Shown one piece after another: positions 25,067-57,547 of a stretch of 64,000 nt of DNA. Positions within the stretch are counted from its first letter, which is position 1. Each line of letters opens with the position of its first letter. Source of the DNA: a virus. Taxonomy: Duplodnaviria; Caudoviricetes. The stretch covers positions 224,001-288,000 of IMG/VR virus record IMGVR_UViG_3300037067_018912, one strand, 5' to 3'. The translations under genes and the position numbers were made by a program. Under the pieces are notes generated by a model. It worked only from the letters and a program-made list of their open reading frames with translations. It had not been told where the DNA came from and ran no database searches.

Positions 25067-25097
25067 TTTGTATTTATAATTCCAAGTATTATATTTG
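25067..25097 (+). promoter_or_regulatory. Bacteroidota sigma-A-type promoter of tRNA operon 1
   Basis: TTTG(25067-70)-N19-TATATTTG(25090-97). Confidence 0.8.
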
Positions 25098-25119
25098 CAA
25101 CAAATTATTTGATATTGTC

Positions 25120-25188
25120 ATGAGAAATTTAGTTCATATCCAGCCCCAACATCAACCACCGCAAGTGGAACGGGGTTACTATGTCTAA
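25120..25188 (+). CDS. Attenuator leader peptide 1 (His/Gln/Pro), MRNLVHIQPQHQPPQVERGYYV
   Basis: 22-aa ORF between promoter and terminator; 9 of 10 consecutive codons are His/Gln/Pro. Confidence 0.85.
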   Translation: MRNLVHIQPQHQPPQVERGYYV

Positions 25189-25221
25189 ATTTTCGTAAAA
25201 AAATTTTTAGTTAAACTAAGG

Positions 25222-25255
25222 AAACCCCGTTCGCAAGAGCGGGGTTTTTTTGTTT
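25222..25255 (+). terminator. Attenuator terminator 1
   Basis: AAACCCCGTTC-GCAA-GAGCGGGGTTT plus T run; 5' arm complementary to GAACGGGGTT at 25168-25177. Confidence 0.9.
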
Positions 25256-29295: not shown

Positions 29296-29326
29296 TTTGT
29301 TTGTATTGTAACATTTTTTACCTTTG
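29296..29326 (+). promoter_or_regulatory. Bacteroidota-type promoter of tRNA operon 2
   Basis: TTTG(29296-99)-N19-TACCTTTG(29319-26). Confidence 0.8.
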
Positions 29327-29372
29327 CCTCGTATTTAGACTTGAACGATTATAAACAACAAGAATTTTTAAA

Positions 29373-29465
29373 ATGAAAAAGATGCTCGACATATTAGTAG
29401 TCCTATCAGTGGCCGTCCTGTTGTGGGATGATGCTGCAGAGGAAAAACTACATGAAGTCGGGTAA
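29373..29465 (+). CDS. Attenuator leader peptide 2 (Leu/Val/Ala/Asp/Glu/Trp), MKKMLDILVVLSVAVLLWDDAAEEKLHEVG
   Basis: 30-aa ORF; 21 residues are L/V/A/D/E/W. Confidence 0.85.
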   Translation: MKKMLDILVVLSVAVLLWDDAAEEKLHEVG

Positions 29466-29500
29466 TATTGGATACTTATTACATCTCCTTTCCTAACACG

Positions 29501-29540
29501 AAAAGACCCGGCTTCAAAAAAGACCGGGTTTTTTTGTTTT
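29501..29540 (+). terminator. Attenuator terminator 2
   Basis: AAAAGACCCGG...CCGGGTTTTTTT; 5' arm ACCCGGCTTCA pairs with TGAAGTCGGGT (29453-63). Confidence 0.88.
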
Positions 29541-29713: not shown

Positions 29714-29787
29714 AGTCCTGTAGTTTATACGGGTGTGAATGCCCCTGCGCACGGGGGTGGTTGCTGGTTCAAATCCAGTCAGGACTG
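29714..29787 (+). ncRNA. tRNA-like element with aberrant anticodon loop
   Basis: Acceptor AGTCCTG/CAGGACT, T arm GGTTCAAATCC, anticodon region CCCCT-GCGCAC-GGGGG. Confidence 0.65.
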
Positions 29788-29793
29788 CAAATC

Positions 29794-32042: not shown

Positions 32043-32358
32043 CAACATTAATTAAATAAGAAAGCGAGGCGTGTTTTCAAACTGCGAATCAAGAATAGAA
32101 ATAAGATTTGGTGGTGGCGATTCGTTCACTACAATTATTTCCACAGAAGATTATTCCGTGAATTCTATGTGCAAAGGAAAAGATTCACAGAACGACAGAT
32201 TAGGAAATACCATTTGTACCAAAAACTCGATGATCTGATTACCTTCCGATGGTGCAAATTGTATCACAGGTTGTTATTTTGGCTCGAAGAATAAATTCCT
32301 GTATTTATTGATAACAACATTTGCTTTTATGCGTATAATGTTATAATTTTGATTTATC

Positions 32359-40551: not shown

Positions 40552-40582
40552 TTTGTTAGTCTCGTATTTATTCGTACATTTG
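40552..40582 (+). promoter_or_regulatory. Bacteroidota-type promoter of tRNA operon 3
   Basis: TTTG(40552-55)-N19-TACATTTG(40575-82). Confidence 0.8.
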
Positions 40583-40619
40583 CATCACGATTTTTGATAA
40601 ACTAAGTAAAAACAATATA

Positions 40620-40712
40620 ATGTTTGCATTCGGAACATATTATTACACCAAGAAATCTTATAAAAAGCAATTTATAGGAATCGGGAATAATATGTCCACA
40701 TGCGAAAGATAA
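40620..40712 (+). CDS. Attenuator leader peptide 3 (Tyr/Lys), MFAFGTYYYTKKSYKKQFIGIGNNMSTCER
   Basis: 30-aa ORF; 8 of 10 consecutive codons are Tyr/Lys. Confidence 0.85.
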   Translation: MFAFGTYYYTKKSYKKQFIGIGNNMSTCER

Positions 40713-40737
40713 GCAATGATCTTTGCATTATGCACTG

Positions 40738-40772
40738 AAAACCCGGTTCGAAAGACCGGGTTTTTTTGTTTT
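40738..40772 (+). terminator. Attenuator terminator 3
   Basis: AAAACCCGGTT-CGAAA-GACCGGGTTTT; CCCGGTTC pairs with GAATCGGG (40678-85). Confidence 0.88.
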
Positions 40773-41388: not shown

Positions 41389-41502
41389 GGGAGTGTGGTC
41401 GAGCGGTAGACGCAGGCTGAATTGGTACACTGTTTGGGTTTACAACCTTAACAAACAGAGGAAGCCTGATAAGTACGCAGGTTCGAATCCTGCCACCCTC
41501 CA
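41389..41502 (+). ncRNA. tRNA-like RNA with a structured insertion of about 45 nt in place of the anticodon loop
   Basis: D arm GGTCGAGCGGTAGAC, T arm GCAGGTTCGAATCCTGC, CAGGCT...AGCCTG enclosing CTGTTTG...CAAACAG. Confidence 0.7.
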
Positions 41503-41851: not shown

Positions 41852-41882
41852 AAAACCCGGTTCGAAAGACCGGGTTTTTTTA
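41852..41882 (+). terminator. Terminator closing tRNA operon 3
   Basis: AAAACCCGGTTCGAAAGACCGGGTTTTT, same sequence as 40738. Confidence 0.9.
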
Positions 41883-48299: not shown

Positions 48300-48332
48300 A
48301 AAACCCCGAATAAAAAAATTCGGGGTTTTTTT
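48300..48332 (+). terminator. Intrinsic terminator
   Basis: AAACCCCGAAT...ATTCGGGGTTTTT. Confidence 0.85.
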
Positions 48333-48351: not shown

Positions 48352-48382
48352 TTTGCAAATTAGTGTAACTGTTTTATCTTTG
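48352..48382 (+). promoter_or_regulatory. Bacteroidota-type promoter of tRNA operon 4
   Basis: TTTG(48352-55)-N19-TATCTTTG(48375-82). Confidence 0.8.
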
Positions 48383-48436
48383 CAACGTATTTAAGAGAAA
48401 CGATATTTTTCGTAAAATAATAACTTTAAATTTTCA

Positions 48437-48562
48437 ATGAAAACTTTAGCCACATATAGGCCAACGTCCGGATCGACAGAAAGTCGCAACGGGAATGCTA
48501 TATCCTGCTCATTTATTAATGACGGCAGAGGCATATACGGCATCGGGTTATTGTTTTCGTGA
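48437..48562 (+). CDS. Attenuator leader peptide 4 (Thr/Ser/Arg/Asn/Gly/Ile/Cys/Phe), MKTLATYRPTSGSTESRNGNAISCSFINDGRGIYGIGLLFS
   Basis: 41-aa ORF; 29 residues are T/S/R/N/G/I/C/F. Confidence 0.85.
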   Translation: MKTLATYRPTSGSTESRNGNAISCSFINDGRGIYGIGLLFS

Positions 48563-48589
48563 GAAAAAAAGGACAGTTAAAACTTAACG

Positions 48590-48624
48590 AAACCCGGTGT
48601 CAAAAGCACCGGGTTTTTTGTTTT
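48590..48624 (+). terminator. Attenuator terminator 4
   Basis: AAACCCGGTGT-CAAAA-GCACCGGGTTT plus T run; 5' arm pairs with GGCATCGGGTT (48539-49). Confidence 0.9.
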
Positions 48625-48662
48625 AGGGTTGTTGTGTATAGTTTTTTGGGTTCTTTTCATAC

Positions 48663-48733
48663 GTCGGGATAGTATAGTGGTAGTACGCTTGTGTGGTATT
48701 CAAGTGACACCAGTTCGAGTCTGGTTCTCGGCT
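48663..48733 (+). tRNA. tRNA-Thr(GGT)
   Basis: CTTGT-GT-GGT-AT-TCAAG. Confidence 0.75.
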
Positions 48734-48793
48734 CAACGAATATCAGTTGTGAAACTCATATTCATCGATTATAAGGTCACAACCTTATGATTG

Positions 48794-48806
48794 AGTTCTT
48801 TGACAT
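48794..48806 (+). promoter_or_regulatory. boxA-like antitermination element
   Basis: AGTTCTTTGACAT. Confidence 0.65.
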
Positions 48807-48817
48807 GCTGGAATTTT

Positions 48818-48898
48818 GAAGGGTTGCCTGAGTGGTTGAAAGGGACAGTCTGCAAAACTGTTAGGAAACTCACGTGGGTTCAAATCCCACACCCTTCT
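48818..48898 (+). tRNA. tRNA-Cys(GCA) with extended variable region
   Basis: ACAGT-CT-GCA-AA-ACTGT, U73. Confidence 0.85.
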
Positions 48899-48960
48899 CA
48901 AAAGCGATATTTTGCGAAAAGCATTGTTTTTCGGTACTTATTGCAAAATATCGCTCTTAT

Positions 48961-49032
48961 GGACTGGTGGCTCAGTGGTAGAGCGTCTGGCTGTTAACCA
49001 GAGGGTCGGGGGTTCAAATCCCTCTCAGTCCG
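48961..49032 (+). tRNA. tRNA-Asn(GTT)
   Basis: TCTGG-CT-GTT-AA-CCAGA. Confidence 0.92.
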
Positions 49033-49037
49033 CAAAT

Positions 49038-49111
49038 TGTCTCGTAGTTCAGTTGGTTAGAGCACATCCCTGATAAGGATGAAGTCGTGAGTTCAACTCT
49101 CACCGAGACAA
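49038..49111 (+). tRNA. tRNA-Ile(GAT)
   Basis: CATCC-CT-GAT-AA-GGATG. Confidence 0.92.
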
Positions 49112-49187
49112 CAAACCGCCCCCAGCGGTATATAAAATTATGAATAAGCAATGCGCATTTAGTGCTGTTCATATACTGGGGACGCAT

Positions 49188-49262
49188 TGGGTGGTAGTTC
49201 AGTCCGGTTAGAACGCATCTCTGATAAGGATGAAGTCGAGGGTTCAAATCCCCCCCTCCCAA
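49188..49262 (+). tRNA. tRNA-Ile(GAT)
   Basis: CATCT-CT-GAT-AA-GGATG. Confidence 0.85.
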
Positions 49263-49383
49263 CAAAAGGTTCGTAGTCCGAAAGCCTAACCAGCCGACGG
49301 GTGAAGTTTCCTTGGCGAAATTGATGTAAACAAGCACCTGTGGTGGGATTGCGATGTGCTGATAAAGTGACCGAAAACTTAAT

Positions 49384-49470
49384 GGAAGGTTGGCAGAGCG
49401 GTCGATTGCGCCTGTCTTGAAAACAGGTGTACATGCCAATGTACCGGGGGTTCGAATCCCTCACCTTCCG
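49384..49470 (+). tRNA. tRNA-Ser(TGA)
   Basis: CCTGT-CT-TGA-AA-ACAGG, long V arm. Confidence 0.92.
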
Positions 49471-49553
49471 CACTTGGCGTAACCACGGCACGAACCGTGA
49501 CTTCGGATTTGATCACCGATGAAGCATTTAATGTTGATGCAGTCATGATATTT

Positions 49554-49638
49554 GGAGAGTTGGCAGAATGGTCATTGCAACAGTCCCGAAAACTGTCGTC
49601 GTGAAAGCGGCGTGTAGGTTCGAATCCTATGCTCTCCG
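49554..49638 (+). tRNA. tRNA-Ser(CGA), C33
   Basis: ACAGT-CC-CGA-AA-ACTGT, long V arm. Confidence 0.88.
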
Positions 49639-49645
49639 CAAAATC

Positions 49646-49717
49646 GAGGAAGTAGCATTACATGGGTAGCGCAGGGGCGAAAACCCTGAGAGGTGGGTTC
49701 GATTCCTGCATTCCTCA
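49646..49717 (+). tRNA. tRNA-Phe(GAA), atypical
   Basis: CAGGG-GC-GAA-AA-CCCTG. Confidence 0.65.
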
Positions 49718-49726
49718 CTCAAACAT

Positions 49727-49815
49727 GGAAGGTTGACAGAGCGGTCTATTGTAACAGCCTGGAAAGTTGTCGTCGTGAAAGCGACGCAGGGGTTCGAATC
49801 CCTTACCTTCCGCCA
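49727..49815 (+). tRNA. tRNA-Ser(GGA)
   Basis: ACAGC-CT-GGA-AA-GTTGT, long V arm, CCA encoded. Confidence 0.9.
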
Positions 49816-50148
49816 AAATTGACTTTAATATTGGAACAAAAAGGATGTAGTGTCATGACACATTCTTCGGGGAGGTTCAAATCCTTCAGAGTCAGCAAAC
49901 GGGTTGGACTGCAATCCGACCTGTTCTCACAGGATGCTGTTACAATCGTATCATTGCAGTGATGTGGTTGATGCAAAATGTGCGAGTCCCTGTATGCATA
50001 AGATGCTGTCCTAATGTTCAGTAGCAATTCCTCTTTCGCACACATGGTTGGCAACATGAAATGTGTGAGTACGGTGTTGTTCAGAGACGTTTATGTTGGT
50101 TGCAATGCCTCCGGGTTCGTGGTATAAGGCCACAACAGGGACAAATAT

Positions 50149-50220
50149 GGAGTGGTAACTCAGCGGTAGAGTGCCTCCCTGAAGAGGAGGTGGTCGGGGG
50201 TTCAAATCCCTCTCACTCCA
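50149..50220 (+). tRNA. tRNA-Phe(GAA)
   Basis: CCTCC-CT-GAA-GA-GGAGG. Confidence 0.9.
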
Positions 50221-50556
50221 CAAAAAAGGCAGGTGGACGGATCAAATCCTGTTCCCGCAGGACAAGATTGCCGCCTTGGTGCGGACGTTCACAACGGGAC
50301 TGCCTTATACAGGTCGGGCAACCAGCGGGGTTGTTCGGGTAACTTCCTCACAAGGAATCCTGTAAAAACATTGATAAACGGGGATACCCCGCTGCGAAAG
50401 CAGTGCCCCGCCCATAAAACAGGCTTCACGAAGACCTCCAACTTTAGGTTGGTGGGCGGTCAAACGCCCGGTGAAAGGTTCGTATATCAACAGGCTCACG
50501 GAGTCCTCCAACTTAAAATTGGTGAATCTCAATAATTCAGTAAAAAGTCCGTAAAT

Positions 50557-50628
50557 GCGAGTATAGCACAACGGCCAGTGCGTCAGATTTCCAATCTGAG
50601 GATGTCAGTTCGATCCTGATTACTCGCT
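50557..50628 (+). tRNA. tRNA-Gly(TCC)
   Basis: TCAGA-TT-TCC-AA-TCTGA. Confidence 0.9.
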
Positions 50629-50635
50629 CAAACAT

Positions 50636-50715
50636 TCACGAATAACTCAGCGGTTAGAGTGCCTCGGCGGGCTTCGGCTACGAGGGAGTCGGGGGTTCAA
50701 ATCCCTCTTCGTGTA
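50636..50715 (+). ncRNA. tRNA-like RNA whose anticodon loop is replaced by a UUCG hairpin
   Basis: Canonical D and T arms; CCTCG-gcgggcttcggcta-CGAGG. Confidence 0.75.
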
Positions 50716-50767
50716 CAAAAGGTCTGAGGGAGTCCTTTGAAGGTATAAACAACCTGTCCCTCTCCAC

Positions 50768-50840
50768 GGTGGTGTGGCGCAATGGTCAGCGCAGGACTCT
50801 TATAAGGTCAAGGTTGGGGGTTCAAGTCCCTTCACCACTA
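50768..50840 (+). tRNA. tRNA-Ile(TAT)
   Basis: GACT-CT-TAT-AA-GGTC. Confidence 0.85.
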
Positions 50841-50847
50841 CAAAAAT

Positions 50848-50932
50848 GTTTGGTTAGTCAAGTGGCCGACGACAGCAGGCTGTTAACCTGCCGAGAGAAA
50901 TCCCATCGTAGGTTCGAATCCTACATCAAACG
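50848..50932 (+). tRNA. tRNA-Asn(GTT) with long variable region
   Basis: GCAGG-CT-GTT-AA-CCTGC then 16-nt V region. Confidence 0.8.
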
Positions 50933-50978
50933 CAAATCATTTCCAAACCCTTATAGTATTTATGTGAAAATTAATGAT

Positions 50979-51230
50979 ATGAAGAAGGTTTGGGAAAGTC
51001 TCAAGTGGTTTTTCAGCAGATGGATGCTCGTGTTGGTTGTGCTTATTGTATTGGGGATAATCGCAACGTTCATAATAAAATTCACAACACATACAGAAGA
51101 ACCATACAAAATTCCATTGTTCATCATCGGTGGTTGGGGGGTATTTGTCGTTCTCTTCACTTGGGTGAGAGAGATTTATTGGAAAATTGCAGGTAAAGGT
51201 GATTATGCTAAAAAGGACGAAAAGAAATGA
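50979..51230 (+). CDS. Small membrane protein (2 TM)
   Basis: MKKVWESLKW..., two hydrophobic segments. Confidence 0.7.
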   Translation: MKKVWESLKWFFSRWMLVLVVLIVLGIIATFIIKFTTHTEEPYKIPLFIIGGWGVFVVLFTWVREIYWKIAGKGDYAKKDEKK

Positions 51231-51604
51231 ATATAATTTCGATTCTATTATTCTTTTTCGCCGGGGTTTGCAATGCCTGCATGGATGTATTAAGAACGAG
51301 ATATAACACTTCTACATTTCGTTTTTGGCGGAATCAGAATTGGGTGAACCCGGCATTATCATGGCCGAATAAATGGAAGCCAAAGTCGAAATTCGGTGAT
51401 CTTATTATGTCGACAGTCCTTGTATGGGTAACTGATTTTTGGCATATGTGTAAAATGTTGATGATTCTTTGTTTTACAATGGGAGCGATTTTTTATCAAC
51501 CAATTTTTGACTTTTCAAAATTTTGGTTGGATTTGTTGATTTTATATTTTATATTCACAGGAACATTTGAACTGTTTTTCAGCAAAGTGCTAATAAAGAA
51601 ATGA
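51227..51604 (+). CDS. Membrane protein
   Basis: 125 aa, SWPNKWK...VWVTDFWHMCK. Confidence 0.75.
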   Translation: MNIISILLFFFAGVCNACMDVLRTRYNTSTFRFWRNQNWVNPALSWPNKWKPKSKFGDLIMSTVLVWVTDFWHMCKMLMILCFTMGAIFYQPIFDFSKFWLDLLILYFIFTGTFELFFSKVLIKK

Positions 51605-51635
51605 CAATCATGTAAAATAATAAAGGGACATATTG

Positions 51636-52544
51636 ATGATCAAGATTTTCAAAACTTTCGGCGGGTGCGAAAGCGCAACCAAATTGGAAAAGGGATGTTG
51701 GATAGATGTGATTCAACCTACACAAGACGAGATTGAAGAAATAATAAACGGTTTTAACCTGCCCCCCGATAGTATACAAGACATTCTTGACGCCGATGAA
51801 ATGCCCCGTCTTGAAATCGACGACACTTACACCTTGATCATCATGCGTATTCCGGTGGAGAATTCACAAAACGGAATACCTTATTACACAATACCTCTTG
51901 GAATTTTTGTGACGGAAGATTTCACAATCACGATTTGTAATCAGGACAATGAAATCATTCAACCGAAACAATTGAGTAGCACGGCGGACACATACAATTT
52001 TATTTTGAAATTTTTTGTCAGATCAGCGAGTGTTTTTTTGAAATACCTTAAACAAATCAATCAACAGACAAGTCAAATCGAAAAGGATTTGGAAGAATCA
52101 ATTAAGAACAGTGAATTGAAAAAACTGTTGAAGATGGAAAAATGCCTTGTGTACTTCATTACTGCAATAAAATCGAATGAAATCGTCCTTCACCGTTTAA
52201 AAAACTCGAAAAGGATCACGGGTGAAATCAATGAAGACCTTTATGAGGACGCATTGATTGAAAACAGGCAGGCACTTGAAATGGCGCAGATATATTCAGA
52301 CATCTTGAGCGGGATGATGGACGCATTTGCCTCGATCATTTCGAACAACCTAAATGTGATAATGAAGAAATTGACGCTCATTTCAATAATACTCATGATC
52401 CCGACCCTTATCGCAAGTATATTCGGAATGAACATTCCGAATTTCATGGAAGGTTCAAATTGGGCGTTGCCTTCAATAATAATATTATCCCTATCACTGT
52501 CTTTGATCAGTGTGAAACTGATGAGAAACAAGCAGTGGTTTTAA
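51636..52544 (+). CDS. corA: CorA-family Mg2+ transporter
   Basis: ISNNLNVIMKKLT...PTLIASIFGMN signature. Confidence 0.92.
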   Translation: MIKIFKTFGGCESATKLEKGCWIDVIQPTQDEIEEIINGFNLPPDSIQDILDADEMPRLEIDDTYTLIIMRIPVENSQNGIPYYTIPLGIFVTEDFTITICNQDNEIIQPKQLSSTADTYNFILKFFVRSASVFLKYLKQINQQTSQIEKDLEESIKNSELKKLLKMEKCLVYFITAIKSNEIVLHRLKNSKRITGEINEDLYEDALIENRQALEMAQIYSDILSGMMDAFASIISNNLNVIMKKLTLISIILMIPTLIASIFGMNIPNFMEGSNWALPSIIILSLSLSLISVKLMRNKQWF

Positions 52545-52548
52545 AAAT

Positions 52549-52632
52549 GCCGATATCGCATAGTTGGTCAATTGCGCCGCACTTGTAATGCGGAGAAGAA
52601 ATTCTTCGTGGGTTCGAATCCCGCTATCGGCT
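52549..52632 (+). tRNA. tRNA-Thr(TGT) with long variable arm
   Basis: CCGCA-CT-TGT-AA-TGCGG then AGAA-GAAA-TTCT. Confidence 0.85.
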
Positions 52633-52734
52633 CAAAAGTAGGTGAAAAAGCGAAAGGATAACCTTCGGTATCAGGAAAACCTTTCACGGGTGCGGGAATA
52701 GACCGACTTGAACCGCACCCCGCTTATTTAAGTT

Positions 52735-52806
52735 GCCGATATAGCACAGCGGTAGTGCACCTGTTTCGTAAACAGGGGGTCGCAGGTTCAAATCCCGCTA
52801 TCGGCT
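52735..52806 (+). tRNA. tRNA-Thr(CGT)
   Basis: CCTGT-TT-CGT-AA-ACAGG. Confidence 0.9.
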
Positions 52807-52846
52807 CAAATCCTTGCTATTCTCCCTAATTTTTCCTAATTTTAAT

Positions 52847-52918
52847 GCCTCTATAGTTCAAGGGACAGAACAGAAGTTTTCTAAACTTCCGATCATGGTT
52901 CGAGTCCATGTGGGGGTA
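52847..52918 (+). tRNA. tRNA-Arg(TCT)
   Basis: GAAGT-TT-TCT-AA-ACTTC. Confidence 0.9.
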
Positions 52919-52932
52919 CTAAATAAATTAAA

Positions 52933-53166
52933 ATGTATACAGTTATCTGCCCGAAATGCAAGAAGTCCTTCACTGTGTCGGGTGACACCGAATACGTTCT
53001 TTGTTGCGATGAGGTGATATTCATCCCATCTAATGGTCCTGAAATGAAAGGCATCACTTTCCAATGCATACAGGAGGGGTTAATGAGGGATGGACGCAAC
53101 GTCGACCGGATATTTCTTGGTGATCCAAATGAAAGTATTGCACCCGATCCATACGAAGGATTGTGA
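52933..53166 (+). CDS. Small Cys-containing protein
   Basis: CPKC...CC. Confidence 0.55.
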   Translation: MYTVICPKCKKSFTVSGDTEYVLCCDEVIFIPSNGPEMKGITFQCIQEGLMRDGRNVDRIFLGDPNESIAPDPYEGL

Positions 53167-53329
53167 TGCGTTTTACGGTAAAGAAAATGAACGGCAAGGT
53201 CGCCTTTATGAATGAAAACAAAAGGTGGGTCAAACTCAATGGTTACGCTTTCCTTGATGAATACGGCCATTGCATCATAATTGTTTATGGTGAAGCGAGA
53301 ATGAAAGATGTTGAAAAGTATTTAAGTAT

Positions 53330-53401
53330 GCCCCTGTAGTTCAATGGACAGAACGGAAGTTTCCTAAACTTTAAATTCGAGTTCGATTCTCGGTGGGGGT
53401 A
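53330..53401 (+). tRNA. tRNA-Arg(CCT)
   Basis: GAAGT-TT-CCT-AA-ACTTT. Confidence 0.88.
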
Positions 53402-53493
53402 CAAAAACAGACAAATATTATCCGTCAATATGCAAAAACGTATAATAACCGGATAATAAATATCCTTATATGTAAAAGCATATAATAACATTC

Positions 53494-53565
53494 GCTCCCG
53501 TAGTTCAACGGATAGAACGCAAGTTTCCGGAACTTGTGATGCAAGTTCGATTCTTGTCGGGAGTA
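53494..53565 (+). tRNA. tRNA-Arg(CCG)
   Basis: CAAGT-TT-CCG-GA-ACTTG. Confidence 0.9.
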
Positions 53566-53592
53566 CAAGGTATTTATGTGAAAAGTAAATCA

Positions 53593-54069
53593 ATGAACAA
53601 CACCAAATTGAATGAAGAGATTCTGACCGCATACCGGGGTGGTGGGGAAATGCCGAGTCAAAGAAGGCTTTGGTACTTTACAACAAACGTCAAATATGCA
53701 AATTGGTTCAAGAGATACGCTTCCCTTGGAAAAGGCAAATTGTTTAAAGCGGATATAAGCACGGACAACCTTCTCGATTTGAGGTTTGTGACAAAACAGT
53801 TGAATTATCTTGATCTTCATTACATTTTAAAAAACAATGGAATAAGACCACCAAAATTCGTAATTGAAAACATTGAAGCGGGTTATGGTGGATACAAAGG
53901 TAATCTTTGGGAGTTCTTGAAAGAAGACAATGAATTGTGGGACAACATCTCAGAGAAATACGACGGAGTTATTTTCACCGAGACGAATCCGGAAGCGAGA
54001 CATACGGGCAAGGCGGAGACTATAATAATTGATATGATCAAGCACCCGGTCGAATATGAAGAAGTATAA
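53593..54069 (+). CDS. ADP-ribosyltransferase-like protein (tentative)
   Basis: AYRG...WYFTT..KYA...YDGVIF pattern. Confidence 0.5.
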   Translation: MNNTKLNEEILTAYRGGGEMPSQRRLWYFTTNVKYANWFKRYASLGKGKLFKADISTDNLLDLRFVTKQLNYLDLHYILKNNGIRPPKFVIENIEAGYGGYKGNLWEFLKEDNELWDNISEKYDGVIFTETNPEARHTGKAETIIIDMIKHPVEYEEV

Positions 54070-54072
54070 TAT

Positions 54073-54146
54073 GCACCTGTAGTGTAACTGGACAACACGT
54101 CTGACTACGGATCAGGAGATTGAGGGTTCGAATCCTTTCAGGTGTA
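54073..54146 (+). tRNA. tRNA-Arg(ACG)
   Basis: TCTGA-CT-ACG-GA-TCAGG. Confidence 0.92.
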
Positions 54147-54256
54147 CTAAAACCATAAGCCTATAGTCCAATATTCGAGAGTAACTTCTCAGAAGGGCAC
54201 GGTGTACAACGGAATTCAGGTATGAAATCCTGATGGGAACAACTTATGGTTTAATT

Positions 54257-54329
54257 GCAGAAATGGCGCAATCGGTAGCGCATGGCCTTCCCAAGGCCAG
54301 GGTTGCGGGTTCGAGACCCGTTTTCTGCT
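54257..54329 (+). tRNA. tRNA-Gly(CCC)
   Basis: TGGCC-TT-CCC-AA-GGCCA. Confidence 0.92.
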
Positions 54330-54337
54330 CAAATTTT

Positions 54338-54412
54338 GCGGGAATAGCACAGTGGTAGTGCGTTTGCTTGCCAAGCAAAAGGTCGTGAGTTCAAGCCTCA
54401 TTTCCCGCTCCA
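54338..54412 (+). tRNA. tRNA-Gly(GCC)
   Basis: TTTGC-TT-GCC-AA-GCAAA, CCA encoded. Confidence 0.92.
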
Positions 54413-54413
54413 T

Positions 54414-54486
54414 GCGAGATTAGCACAGTTGGTTAGTGTATCGGCTTGCCATGCCGGGAACGTGGGTTCGAATCCCATATCTTGCT
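54414..54486 (+). tRNA. tRNA-Gly(GCC)
   Basis: TCGGC-TT-GCC-AT-GCCGG. Confidence 0.88.
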
Positions 54487-54501
54487 CAAAATTATGTTGT
54501 T

Positions 54502-55215
54502 ATGTCATTTACTTTTACACTTAAATCAACAGGAGAAGAGATAACACTCCCAACACCAAGCGGTGGTCCGGTTGAAATTGACTCTTTACCTTCCGAACCA
54601 TTGGAAATGAAGTACAGGACGATCGTGGTATCTGACCTGCACATTTTCAGAGATGATTCGAAATACAAAGAGTGTTTTAAATTTTTGATATACAATCCCT
54701 CGGAGAAGATCATCCTGAACGGTGATATCTTCGATTTCCTGCACCTGCTCAAGCATTGGTCGAATTATAAAAAGTACAAATACGTCATGCGAGGGTTCAG
54801 GATATTCATGAAGGAGAGGGGGACAAAGGTGATCTTCCTCGTCGGCAATCACGACTATCATTATTACCTGTTGAAGATCATACAACCCTTCCTGGGGATC
54901 AAAATTAGAAAATTTTATACTTTCGAATCAATTGCCGGGAGGATTCATGCCACACACGGAGATTGGATACCCTACGTGTTAAAGATCAAAAGGTTCTTCA
55001 ATAAAACAATCAAGATATCCGGCAACGAGGATGATGATTACGTCCTCTACGGATTATTAAAGAAATACAATGTCCTCATTTGCGGACACACACATGAACC
55101 GCTGTACAGGATTTACAACAACCTCCTCTACATCAACACAGGCGATTGGGTGAGCGATAACATGGCCGCCGTGGAAGAATTCGACGGGAGTTGGCATTTG
55201 ATACAAACACAATAA
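54502..55215 (+). CDS. Calcineurin-like metallophosphoesterase (LpxH-like)
   Basis: SDLH, NGDIFD, GNHD, HGD, CGHTH, YINTGDWV. Confidence 0.88.
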   Translation: MSFTFTLKSTGEEITLPTPSGGPVEIDSLPSEPLEMKYRTIVVSDLHIFRDDSKYKECFKFLIYNPSEKIILNGDIFDFLHLLKHWSNYKKYKYVMRGFRIFMKERGTKVIFLVGNHDYHYYLLKIIQPFLGIKIRKFYTFESIAGRIHATHGDWIPYVLKIKRFFNKTIKISGNEDDDYVLYGLLKKYNVLICGHTHEPLYRIYNNLLYINTGDWVSDNMAAVEEFDGSWHLIQTQ

Positions 55216-55222
55216 GAACGGT

Positions 55223-55537
55223 ATGAAAGGGATCATAAAATACAATACCAGGTTTTACAAAAAATCTGATAAACCCCTCAAAGAGGGTGATTTAGTTAAA
55301 CTTGAATGTAAAAGAGGTAGCGATTATTTCAAATACAATGGAATATATACCGTCAACAAATGGAACGAAATATTAGTTCCACTTAAAGAAGAAAACGGTA
55401 AAAAATATAATCTTTGTATTAAACTTGGATACAACGTTTTTAAACACGAGGAATACTCCAAATTGGTTGAGGTTCAAAGAAGGAAGTCCCTTCCAAAACC
55501 AGTGAAAGAAGAACAAATGTGTGGTTATACAATATGA
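55223..55537 (+). CDS. Hypothetical protein
   Basis: 104-aa ORF. Confidence 0.6.
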   Translation: MKGIIKYNTRFYKKSDKPLKEGDLVKLECKRGSDYFKYNGIYTVNKWNEILVPLKEENGKKYNLCIKLGYNVFKHEEYSKLVEVQRRKSLPKPVKEEQMCGYTI

Positions 55538-55554
55538 TCTACCCCACCACACAA

Positions 55555-55813
55555 AAAACATAGCACAGAGGATTCATCGCTTGTTCAATAAAATCGTCTG
55601 TTCACTGTACGTGAACATTCAAAAATATTGAACAAGAGGAAGTTCGGGACACCACTGCTGAAGGCGGGAGATTCAACGCTAATCGGGATCGCCAATACCG
55701 CCGAGGGTGCAAGCCAAACAGTTTGAGACGGTGAGCAGGTCTTTGAGAACGGGTTGGTGCGTAGATAAATGATGATTAACAACAGAATCCCGGCTACGCT
55801 CATGCTATGTTTT
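55555..55813 (+). ncRNA. rnpB: RNase P RNA with strongly reduced specificity domain
   Basis: P1 AAAACATAGCA/TGCTATGTTTT; P2 TCATC/GATGA; P3 CTTGTTCAATA/TATTGAACAAG; P4 strands GAGGAAGTTCGGGAC and AGATAAATGA...ACAGAATCCCGGCTA. Confidence 0.85.
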
Positions 55814-55969
55814 AAAATTTTTGACGAATGAATCGAAATCAGTGACGAATGGATGAGAATCATTAATGAAATTAATGTGTTTTAGTCATAATTTAGTCTT
55901 GAAACTCTTATCATTGTAACAAGTCCGGTTTTTTTTCGTATCTTTGTCAGGTAATCAAAACAATCTTGC

Positions 55970-56281
55970 ATGACAACATTATTGAAAAAGGATATCAAAC
56001 GGGAGACGTTCTCCGTAACAGACTTCAAAGGCAACGTAATGATCGTTACCCTAAAAGCGGGTGACATGATCGAGTTCAGAGCGAAAGGTAAGAGGATCAA
56101 GTACGAAGTACCGCTTGCCGCCTGTTTCAACTTGGCAATGATCTATTCCGCACACGAGCGATATAAGGAAAGGATTAAACGCTACGAGGATGGTCGCAAG
56201 GAAGGCCGGAAAATGAAAAGGCCAAGATTGATGCCAAGGATTTTCAATGAAAGATTGTATCAGGCATTGAAATTAATTTAA
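55970..56281 (+). CDS. Hypothetical protein
   Basis: 103-aa ORF with TATCTTTG promoter-like site upstream. Confidence 0.7.
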   Translation: MTTLLKKDIKRETFSVTDFKGNVMIVTLKAGDMIEFRAKGKRIKYEVPLAACFNLAMIYSAHERYKERIKRYEDGRKEGRKMKRPRLMPRIFNERLYQALKLI

Positions 56282-56439
56282 TATATTTGTGTTATGACAT
56301 CGGAGAGTAAGAGAAAGAAGGAGAAAAACAACACGCATAGTGCCAACGGGTTTGCGTTGAAAGAGCATGAATGTAAAATGAAAAGAGCATTGTATTTCAA
56401 TTCATCAAAAAGACAAAAACTCAAAAAAATCGACACCGA

Positions 56440-56808
56440 ATGAACCAAGAATTATGGGAAATATTAGTCCCCTCTTTCAGTAACGGTGGTGAAAAATTTC
56501 CGCTCGAACACCATAAGAAATGGGATGCCTTTGTCAAGAAGATCGCAAAAGGCGTGACGATCATGAAAACTGCCAAAGGTGAATGGGTTAGTCCGACCGG
56601 ACAGGTCTATATGGACAGAATGATCCCATGCCGAATCATTTGTAATGAAAGTCAAATGGATAAAATTATTGATTTCACTATTGAGCATTACGACCAAGAG
56701 GCTGTTCTTGCGTACAAGATTTCGGACAACGTGATCCTGCGCCACAGGAATGACAAGAGCATTAACGAGGACGTCCAAAGACTTTGGAATCAAAGAAACT
56801 ACAGATGA
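56440..56808 (+). CDS. Hypothetical phage protein
   Basis: 122 aa, LWEILVP...KGEWVSP...HYDQEAVLAY. Confidence 0.75.
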   Translation: MNQELWEILVPSFSNGGEKFPLEHHKKWDAFVKKIAKGVTIMKTAKGEWVSPTGQVYMDRMIPCRIICNESQMDKIIDFTIEHYDQEAVLAYKISDNVILRHRNDKSINEDVQRLWNQRNYR

Positions 56809-57002
56809 TACCAATTAAGGATATATTACCTTGTCCGTTTTGCGGAGCACAGGTGAAAGATCATCCGAATCCGATAACCAGTAAGGAATTTTTTATGGTA
56901 AGGCACATGAATGGTTGTTATTTCTTAAAAAATAATTCATCGGATTTCACCTTATTATTGAAAAACGATTATTATATAAAAAGTTGGAATAAAAGAATAT
57001 AA
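56805..57002 (+). CDS. Small CxxC protein (PCPFCG...WNKR)
   Basis: Lar-like zinc-ribbon pattern. Confidence 0.55.
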   Translation: MIPIKDILPCPFCGAQVKDHPNPITSKEFFMVRHMNGCYFLKNNSSDFTLLLKNDYYIKSWNKRI

Positions 57003-57004
57003 TC

Positions 57005-57196
57005 ATGGGAATGTTCGGTGAAATACATGCAGGAATGAATGCTGAACAATTGGAAAAAATCCTTTTGGAGGCAATAAAGGAAAATGACACCATCAAAGCA
57101 TTTGCAAAAAAACATCTGTATCAGTGGTATCTGTCCGAATGCAGTGAAGCGTTCCGTGAATCGAACCATGAAATAAAAGATGAATTTGAAGATTAA
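57005..57196 (+). CDS. Hypothetical protein
   Basis: 63-aa ORF in a packed run. Confidence 0.55.
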   Translation: MGMFGEIHAGMNAEQLEKILLEAIKENDTIKAFAKKHLYQWYLSECSEAFRESNHEIKDEFED

Positions 57197-57200
57197 AAAC

Positions 57201-57413
57201 ATGGAAATTGAAACAGTAAACGATTTGGCAGAACAGATAGCCGACTGGATTGGCATCTATGGCGGCTGTAAATCAGATGGGGAAAGTGGTTGCACATACG
57301 ATAAATTCAAAAATCCTTGTTGCTGCCGCACAGGTTTTATCACCGCTATGGAGGAAAGGATAAGAGAAGCGGTGGAGAATGAAAAAAAACTCGAACAAGC
57401 GGGTTTGAAATAA
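57201..57413 (+). CDS. Hypothetical Cys-rich protein
   Basis: MEIETVNDLAE...PCCCR. Confidence 0.6.
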   Translation: MEIETVNDLAEQIADWIGIYGGCKSDGESGCTYDKFKNPCCCRTGFITAMEERIREAVENEKKLEQAGLK

Positions 57414-57418
57414 AATAA

Positions 57419-57507
57419 GGAAGGGTGGGTGAGTGGCTGAAACCACCTGTTTGCTAAACAGACGTGCGGGGCAACCTGCACCGGGGGTTCAAATCCCCCT
57501 CCTTCCG
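57419..57507 (+). tRNA. tRNA-Ser(GCT)
   Basis: CTGT-TT-GCT-AA-ACAG, long V arm. Confidence 0.9.
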
Positions 57508-57547
57508 CAAAAAATACTCCCACATTTTGTTGAGTATTTATACGTAA

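Follow-up and report, generated by a model that had tools for sequence, protein, structure and literature searches.

Leader-peptide attenuators that respond to several amino acids are known from enterobacteria, where the leaders of ilvGMEDA (Ile/Leu/Val) and thrL (Thr/Ile) are multivalent; trpL, hisL and pheL are further attenuators of this kind. A gene of the translation machinery is controlled by leader-peptide attenuation in E. coli pheM-pheST, with feedback via the charged transfer RNA (tRNA). T-box riboswitches bind uncharged tRNA directly, using one specifier codon and no translation. The pheL leader-peptide attenuator has been described (PMC3082878). In the Anabaena trn operon, 26 tRNAs are under the repressor TrcR (PMC8421152, PMC10272220), and attenuation or a leader is not mentioned in PMC8421152. 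Furthermore, anti-phage systems frequently attack tRNAs, and tRNAs encoded by phages act against such systems (PMC12409363). Here, we analyzed 64,000 nucleotides (nt) of a phage genome (IMG/VR record IMGVR_UViG_3300037067_018912, Duplodnaviria; Caudoviricetes, positions 224,001 to 288,000), called the window throughout the paper, and in it the 41-codon leader open reading frame (ORF) ahead of the largest group of tRNA genes. Judged from its sequence and from folding models, this leader region very probably is a multivalent ribosome-mediated transcription attenuator of a phage tRNA operon.

Using ARAGORN, 58 tRNA genes and one transfer-messenger RNA (tmRNA) gene were found in the window, all on the + strand and arranged in four blocks for Pro/His/Gln, Asp/Glu/Val/Leu/Ala/Trp, Lys/Tyr and Thr/Cys/Asn/Ile/Ser/Phe/Gly/Arg. 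Leader region 4 precedes the last of these blocks, in which the tRNA genes are interspersed with ORFs. Its elements are summarized in Table 1. The full promoter consensus occurs at 25 sites in the genome, and a terminator follows within ~300 nt at four of them only, which are the four tRNA-block leaders. Between 48382 and 59285 no full promoter consensus was found, hence none inside block 4, which makes a single long transcript plausible. A scan for sigma-70 promoters was uninformative, with 28 matches versus 25.9 by chance. The pairing between the antiterminator arm and the 5' arm of the terminator had been drawn in the first-pass annotation and proved exact, with 11 base pairs (9 Watson-Crick and 2 G:U) and a duplex energy of -19.0 kcal/mol. 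Two small conserved hairpins lie within the ORF. The pairs of the first are invariant, so that it receives no support from covariation; the second may act as a polymerase pause.

Table 1. Coordinates in the window of leader region 4, its tRNA block and the three sister cassettes.
Feature	Position	Strand	Remark
Intrinsic terminator of upstream VWA-domain gene	48300..48329	+	shields leader from read-through
Bacteroidota-type primary-sigma promoter, TTTG N19 TAnnTTTG	48352..48382	+	consensus from PMC6847099
Segment 1, start-codon region	48431..48451	+	pairs with 48545-48566 (1:2 helix), competing with antiterminator
Leader ORF, 41 codons and TGA	48437..48562	+	modelled sensing window to codon 32
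Small conserved hairpin CGAC/GTCG within ORF	48474..48486	+	pairs invariant
Second conserved hairpin within ORF, Cys codon to Gly-Arg codons	48505..48528	+	loop length varies by multiples of 3 only
Segment 2, antiterminator arm, codons 35-38	48539..48549	+	partner of 48591-48601
Segments 3:4, intrinsic terminator	48589..48619	+	12-pair stem and U-tract; 5' arm 48591-48601
tRNA block 4, largest	48663..57508	+	22 tRNAs, 19 distinct anticodons, all T, S, R, G, N, I, C, F (ARAGORN)
tRNA with CUA (amber) anticodon	58907..58981	+	probably end of block 4 transcription unit; next promoter 59285
Sister cassette 1, leader 25120-25188	25067..25250	+	precedes Pro/His/Gln block
Sister cassette 2, leader 29373-29465	29296..29535	+	precedes Asp/Glu/Val/Leu/Ala/Trp block
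Sister cassette 3, leader 40620-40712	40552..40766	+	precedes Lys/Tyr block

The codons that the first-pass annotation had listed for the eight amino acids of block 4 are all present in the leader ORF. Its statement that Arg(CCG) alone lacks a leader codon was borne out as well, with 18 of the 19 anticodons matched within codons 3-33. Several of these matches depend on wobble, and the sensing region offers a single codon for Cys and one for Phe. The ATC at codon 36 lies within the antiterminator arm and cannot sense; ATT at codon 27 serves the same tRNA. The eight block amino acids account for 29 of 40 leader residues versus 17.7 expected from genome usage (P=2.7e-4), and within codons 3-33 for 24 of 31 residues versus 14.8 in nucleotide shuffles (P=7.5e-4). 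When the peptide was kept and synonymous codons were resampled, a mean of 14.1 anticodons was covered, compared to the 18 observed (P=0.002). The mere presence of all eight amino acids was reached by 14.5% of shuffles and is not significant; thus the signal is enrichment, not coverage. K, L, A, Y, P, E and D also occur in the leader before the arm, and as these codons fall inside the modelled stall window, shortage of L, A, Y, P, E, D or K is predicted to give some induction in this genome. Own-block enrichment was found for all four leaders of this genome (P = 2e-5, 2e-5, 0.018 and 3e-4) and also across relatives. It is weakest for leader 3 (P=0.018), which contains many block-4 residues, too. 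That the longest leader (41 amino acids) serves the most tRNA types (8 amino acids) is correct as claimed earlier, but the 30-amino-acid leader 3 serves only two.

Relatives were collected by two routes. A search with the neighbouring VWA protein, which is not biased by the leader pattern, yielded 27 loci. Wherever the tRNA array was present in this set the leader was present, and five loci of 41-45% guanine plus cytosine (GC) have neither. All eight amino acids were held by 18 of 18 distinct VWA-anchored copies, with 479 of 537 sensing-region residues coming from the block. A DNA pattern raised the copies to 29, to which 58 full-length metagenome copies were added, making ~87 distinct copies in all. 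Because S, R, G and C are prescribed by the pattern, copies found with it count for architecture, not for composition. The promoter -7 box was present in 29/29 homologues and 68/68 metagenome copies, a terminator followed the leader in 61/61 metagenome copies with enough sequence, and a tRNA was located within 600 nt in 45/46. The frame of the ORF runs through the arm in every copy save L012:13095-13175, a truncated duplicate of promoter and leader 4 which lies ~880 nt upstream of the intact copy and has no terminator. In GenBank phages no similar leader DNA was found. The DNA pattern gave two matches in bacterial and archaeal genomes (L070, L071), an exact search of a kind that may miss distant host versions. 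Both matches are in Patescibacteria metagenome-assembled genomes and are most likely misbinned phage contigs; one of them and a phage record are both 362,763 bp long and their leaders are identical.

With RNAalifold, no structures beyond the terminator and the two small hairpins were recovered, because the automatic alignment was out of register in the arm region. For this reason covariation was tested by comparing own with swapped duplexes. For 28 copies, the own arm:terminator duplex reached -15.3 kcal/mol versus -12.6 +/- 0.4 kcal/mol for permuted partners, a value attained in 0 of 20,000 permutations; with shuffled leaders -6.6 kcal/mol was obtained. In one copy (L038), arm and terminator were changed together (GAGTC/GACTC). 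A further pairing joins the start region to the end of the ORF, and this 1:2 helix co-varies in 28 copies as well (own -10.7 versus permuted -8.5 +/- 0.4 kcal/mol), giving the classical 1:2, 2:3, 3:4 topology. Regardless of the position of the stop codon, the arm lies 34-60 nt ahead of the terminator core. In light of these data it is scarcely credible that a constitutive leaky terminator sets a fixed low tRNA level, with ORF and pairing due to chance. Terminators with the same core do occur elsewhere in these genomes, but arm-terminator covariation, codon enrichment and the joint loss of leader and array would all be unexpected by chance. Ribosome stalls were scanned by minimum-energy folding in two versions, one with unconstrained equilibrium and one with only the RNA ahead of the ribosome. 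In the latter, stalls leave the antiterminator intact as far as 0-4 codons past the final conserved Arg codon; this holds for 27 of 28 copies, and the limit in this genome is codon 32. Consequently, the sensing codons fill the antiterminator window and end with it.

Several findings suggest that the leader is translated. Its start codon is invariant across copies, all indels are multiples of 3 with the frame kept, and the loop that separates the Cys codon from the Gly-Arg codons measures 6, 9, 12, 15 or 18 nt only. In the variable N-terminal part, outside the hairpins, 235 of 303 residues belong to the block versus 150 expected; past the sensing window, in the tail, block residues fall to 61%. 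Hardly any K, P, Q, H, W or M is seen in the sensing window of the leader copies. These observations also bear on a switch working purely at the RNA level or through a protein, such as a riboswitch, a T-box-like element or an antiterminator protein site, with the ORF as a by-product. Conserved hairpins, invariance at the nucleotide level and an antiterminator that folding models allow to form in the absence of a ribosome would fit such a switch. We nevertheless consider it very unlikely, given the invariant start codon, the frame maintained through all indels and, apart from the truncated duplicate, always running through the arm, and the enrichment in the unstructured variable part as well; moreover, tRNA and tmRNA were the only Rfam matches at gathering score.

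Codon fixation was compared among 17 genomes that share 60-79% identity in their VWA proteins. Leader codons are fixed by decoding class, with AGT, CGY, GGR and AGA in 17/17 and ATA in 15/17. In the conserved columns of the VWA control gene, GGR was fixed in 0/23 Gly and ATA in 0/28 Ile positions, and fixation of a single class was seen for 0/7 Arg and 1/23 Ser. The two small hairpins account for AGT, TTC/TGT, GGC-AGA and the initial bases of CGY. A weak extra helix could involve GGR, but neither ATA nor the third base of CGY is accounted for by hairpins. Since decoding-class fixation is almost absent from the conserved residues of the VWA gene, its presence in the leader argues against a nascent-peptide arrest leader of the ermC/tnaC type, in which an SRNG..IFC motif would stall the ribosome upon binding of a drug or metabolite and the amino-acid match would be incidental. 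The motif is short and nearly invariant in this leader family, as expected for an arrest peptide, but it is the codons that are constrained and not the residues: ACA is tolerated in place of ATA, and F is changed to S in this genome. In addition, four unrelated leaders each match their own block. We therefore regard peptide arrest as highly improbable.

We are aware of the fact that a number of observations weigh against attenuation by a codon-reading ribosome. Single codons are weak sensors compared to the codon runs of trpL or hisL. Copies found by pattern are circular for S, R, G and C, and some of the codon fixation is due to the two internal hairpins, possibly together with a weak third helix. 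At the isoacceptor level, AGG was found in just 3 of 11 arrays with Arg(CCU) and CGA in just 1 of 9 with Arg(UCG), and TCG occurs in 10 arrays that lack Ser(CGA). When equilibrium folding was left unconstrained, 26 of 28 copies formed the antiterminator with no ribosome present, and 19 of 28 formed it again behind a ribosome standing at the stop codon. For most stalls after codon 10, moreover, the antiterminator of this genome is beaten by the 1:2 helix. The switch thus depends on steric and kinetic, that is timing, assumptions, as the unconstrained picture is less clean. The first-pass annotation had mapped leader codons onto individual isoacceptors. This mapping is strict at the level of amino acids, includes a fixed codon core and reaches 18/19 in this genome; tracking of the variable isoacceptors across relatives was tested and not found, so that this part of the claim is loose. 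Anticodon coverage exceeds expectation in 13 of 13 genomes, clearly in four and most in this one. Across relatives, what has been conserved is a fixed core of decoding classes, and 18/19 coverage holds in this genome. Among the structural hallmarks of a leader-peptide attenuator of the trpL/ilvL type, a promoter with a conserved ORF, matched codons, a terminator, a mutually exclusive antiterminator and codons placed for stalling were all found; the exception is a clear no-translation default, for which the 1:2 helix prevails in this genome, but 26 of 28 copies favour 2:3 pairing when folded at equilibrium. Taken together, the earlier attenuator interpretation is supported by the conserved set of promoter, ORF, terminator and tRNAs, by arm-terminator covariation and by sensing codons whose positions agree with the stall window of the model.

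The virus record (357,275 bp, 100% complete, with direct terminal repeats) contains a T4-like Gp23 capsid gene and genes for three sigma-70 region-2 proteins; no match to an RNA polymerase beta subunit was obtained in this phage genome. The host is probably a member of the Bacteroidota, to which the promoter consensus and crAss-like Bacteroides phages among the nearest ribonucleotide reductases point. In the proposed mechanism, host RNA polymerase would start at the Bacteroidota-type promoter, and a ribosome would follow through the leader. Prompt reading of all codons would bring the ribosome over the arm, the terminator would form and the tRNA block would stay off. With charged tRNA scarce for a codon at about positions 2-32, the ribosome would lag, leaving the arm to pair with the 5' strand of the terminator, and the polymerase would continue into the 22 tRNA genes. 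The new tRNAs would read the leader's own codons, closing a negative-feedback loop. Without translation, the start region could pair with the arm and thereby favour termination.

Provided that attenuation operates, its natural trigger would most likely be a loss of functional tRNA in infection rather than amino-acid shortage, an assignment we make with somewhat better than even confidence. Host anticodon nucleases, tRNA decay and excess demand are candidate causes. This trigger is suggested because the output of the switch is tRNA, anti-phage systems often act on tRNAs, an RtcB RNA ligase is encoded in the genome (G000:C1:348880-349941), and Cys and Phe are represented by single codons, which suit severe shortage rather than fine tuning. 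It is possible, though rather unlikely, that the same attenuator serves to sense amino-acid limitation through uncharged tRNA as a signal of host starvation, a view that differs in the trigger and not in the mechanism. Indeed, the mechanism cannot distinguish uncharged from missing tRNA, and the match across relatives is strict for amino acids and loose for isoacceptors, as would be expected for amino-acid sensing. Starvation should induce any such switch and alone cannot identify the natural trigger. However, the controlled genes are those of tRNAs and not of biosynthetic enzymes, and more tRNA would supply no amino acid; Cys, Phe and Arg show no codon runs, and synonymous codons are fixed by decoding class. 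Starvation would trip the switch without being cured by extra tRNA, and tRNA loss would be cured, which favours tRNA loss as the trigger. We give roughly even chances to the broader view that the phage audits the working tRNA pool at isoacceptor resolution, with four leaders sampling the whole code and leader 4 sampling 18 decoding classes, and that replacement tRNAs are switched on only upon depletion by host defences (anticodon nucleases) or infection. If true, such an audit would amount to an inducible form of counter-defence and to a tRNA homeostat that regulates itself without a protein regulator.

The layout of four cassettes recurs in genomes of 320-365 kb with ~27-35% GC. In one relative (G004) the Lys tRNAs are lost together with promoter and leader 3, and a decayed terminator with mismatches is left before Tyr (29945 of the assembled stretch). 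A second copy of the block-3 terminator hairpin (41854-41880) closes the Lys/Tyr block. A glutamyl/glutaminyl-tRNA synthetase under a fifth attenuator was not found in this genome. None of the four leaders matched NCBIfam at E 0.1, a comparison in which such short queries have little power. The phage tmRNA (33755-34118) sits between block 2 and its last Leu/Met tRNAs and is preceded by a separate promoter at 32320; Leu(UAA), Leu(CAA) and Met(CAU) may therefore escape attenuator 2.

Inside tRNA block 4, a CorA-like Mg2+ transporter (51633-52544) and a metallophosphoesterase (54436-55215) are encoded, both of which may share the control of the block. For the ORF at 56440-56808, similarity to S-adenosylmethionine lyase was weak (E 0.001) and did not reach the cut-off. 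The tRNA-Ile at 50768-50841 carries a UAU anticodon, which is rare in bacteria; in several relatives its slot is occupied by a CAU tRNA, possibly lysidine Ile2. The amber-anticodon tRNA is found in this genome and in nine relatives with divergent bodies, and of the 131 long ORFs of this genome just 7 end in TAG. Some tRNA-like RNAs with enlarged or odd anticodon arms and a weak second Phe(GAA) (50636-50715, 41389-41501, 29714-29788, 49646-49717) are possibly decoys or decaying copies. Two minus-strand tRNA-like genes (CAU and UCA anticodons; G000:C1:159493-159745) lie far from the arrays.

Large tRNA sets of phages pose an old question, for which codon-usage compensation, replacement of degraded host tRNAs and escape from anticodon nucleases are the competing answers. 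A demand-driven switch would mean that tRNAs are made in response to slow decoding, and the leader would be a ready-made reporter, as the condition that opens it in infection would be the condition for which the tRNAs evolved. It would also imply coupling of transcription and translation in Bacteroidota hosts and offer a 270-nt sensor of tRNA availability. We consider the conserved leader region ahead of phage tRNA genes to be real. A published case of such control of tRNA genes was not found in the literature on attenuation of tRNA genes, phage tRNA leaders and Bacteroidetes attenuators, most subscription journals being outside the search. For the T5 tRNAs, which act against PARIS/AriB, the purpose is likely shared, namely the replacement of host tRNAs lost in infection, and demand-driven control was not found described in the passages of PMC12409363 consulted. 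As in the Anabaena trn operon, a long mobile tRNA array would be normally off and on under translational stress; unlike the codon-specific and block-wise control proposed for the phage, Anabaena employs a ribbon-helix-helix repressor that acts globally at initiation. With T-box riboswitches the phage leader shares a terminator/antiterminator switch reporting tRNA status. T-box identity was rejected, as no Rfam match was obtained and the antiterminator is a plain duplex. Membership in the attenuator families of amino-acid biosynthetic operons was likewise ruled out, since the downstream genes are tRNAs and no named leader matched these short queries. In contrast to the phage leader, pheM-pheST is chromosomal, targets a synthetase and responds to one amino acid. 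The closest resemblance in architecture is to the ilv/thr-type attenuators, with a promoter, a short ORF of control codons, 1:2/2:3/3:4 pairings, an intrinsic terminator and an arm at the 3' end of the ORF. The phage-borne leader differs from them in its mostly dispersed single codons instead of runs, in eight amino acids versus one to three, and in the control of tRNA genes rather than biosynthetic enzymes. It would bring tRNA genes under attenuation and eight amino acids into a single leader, and, again unlike the ilv/thr type, it is one of four cassettes dividing the genetic code among them.

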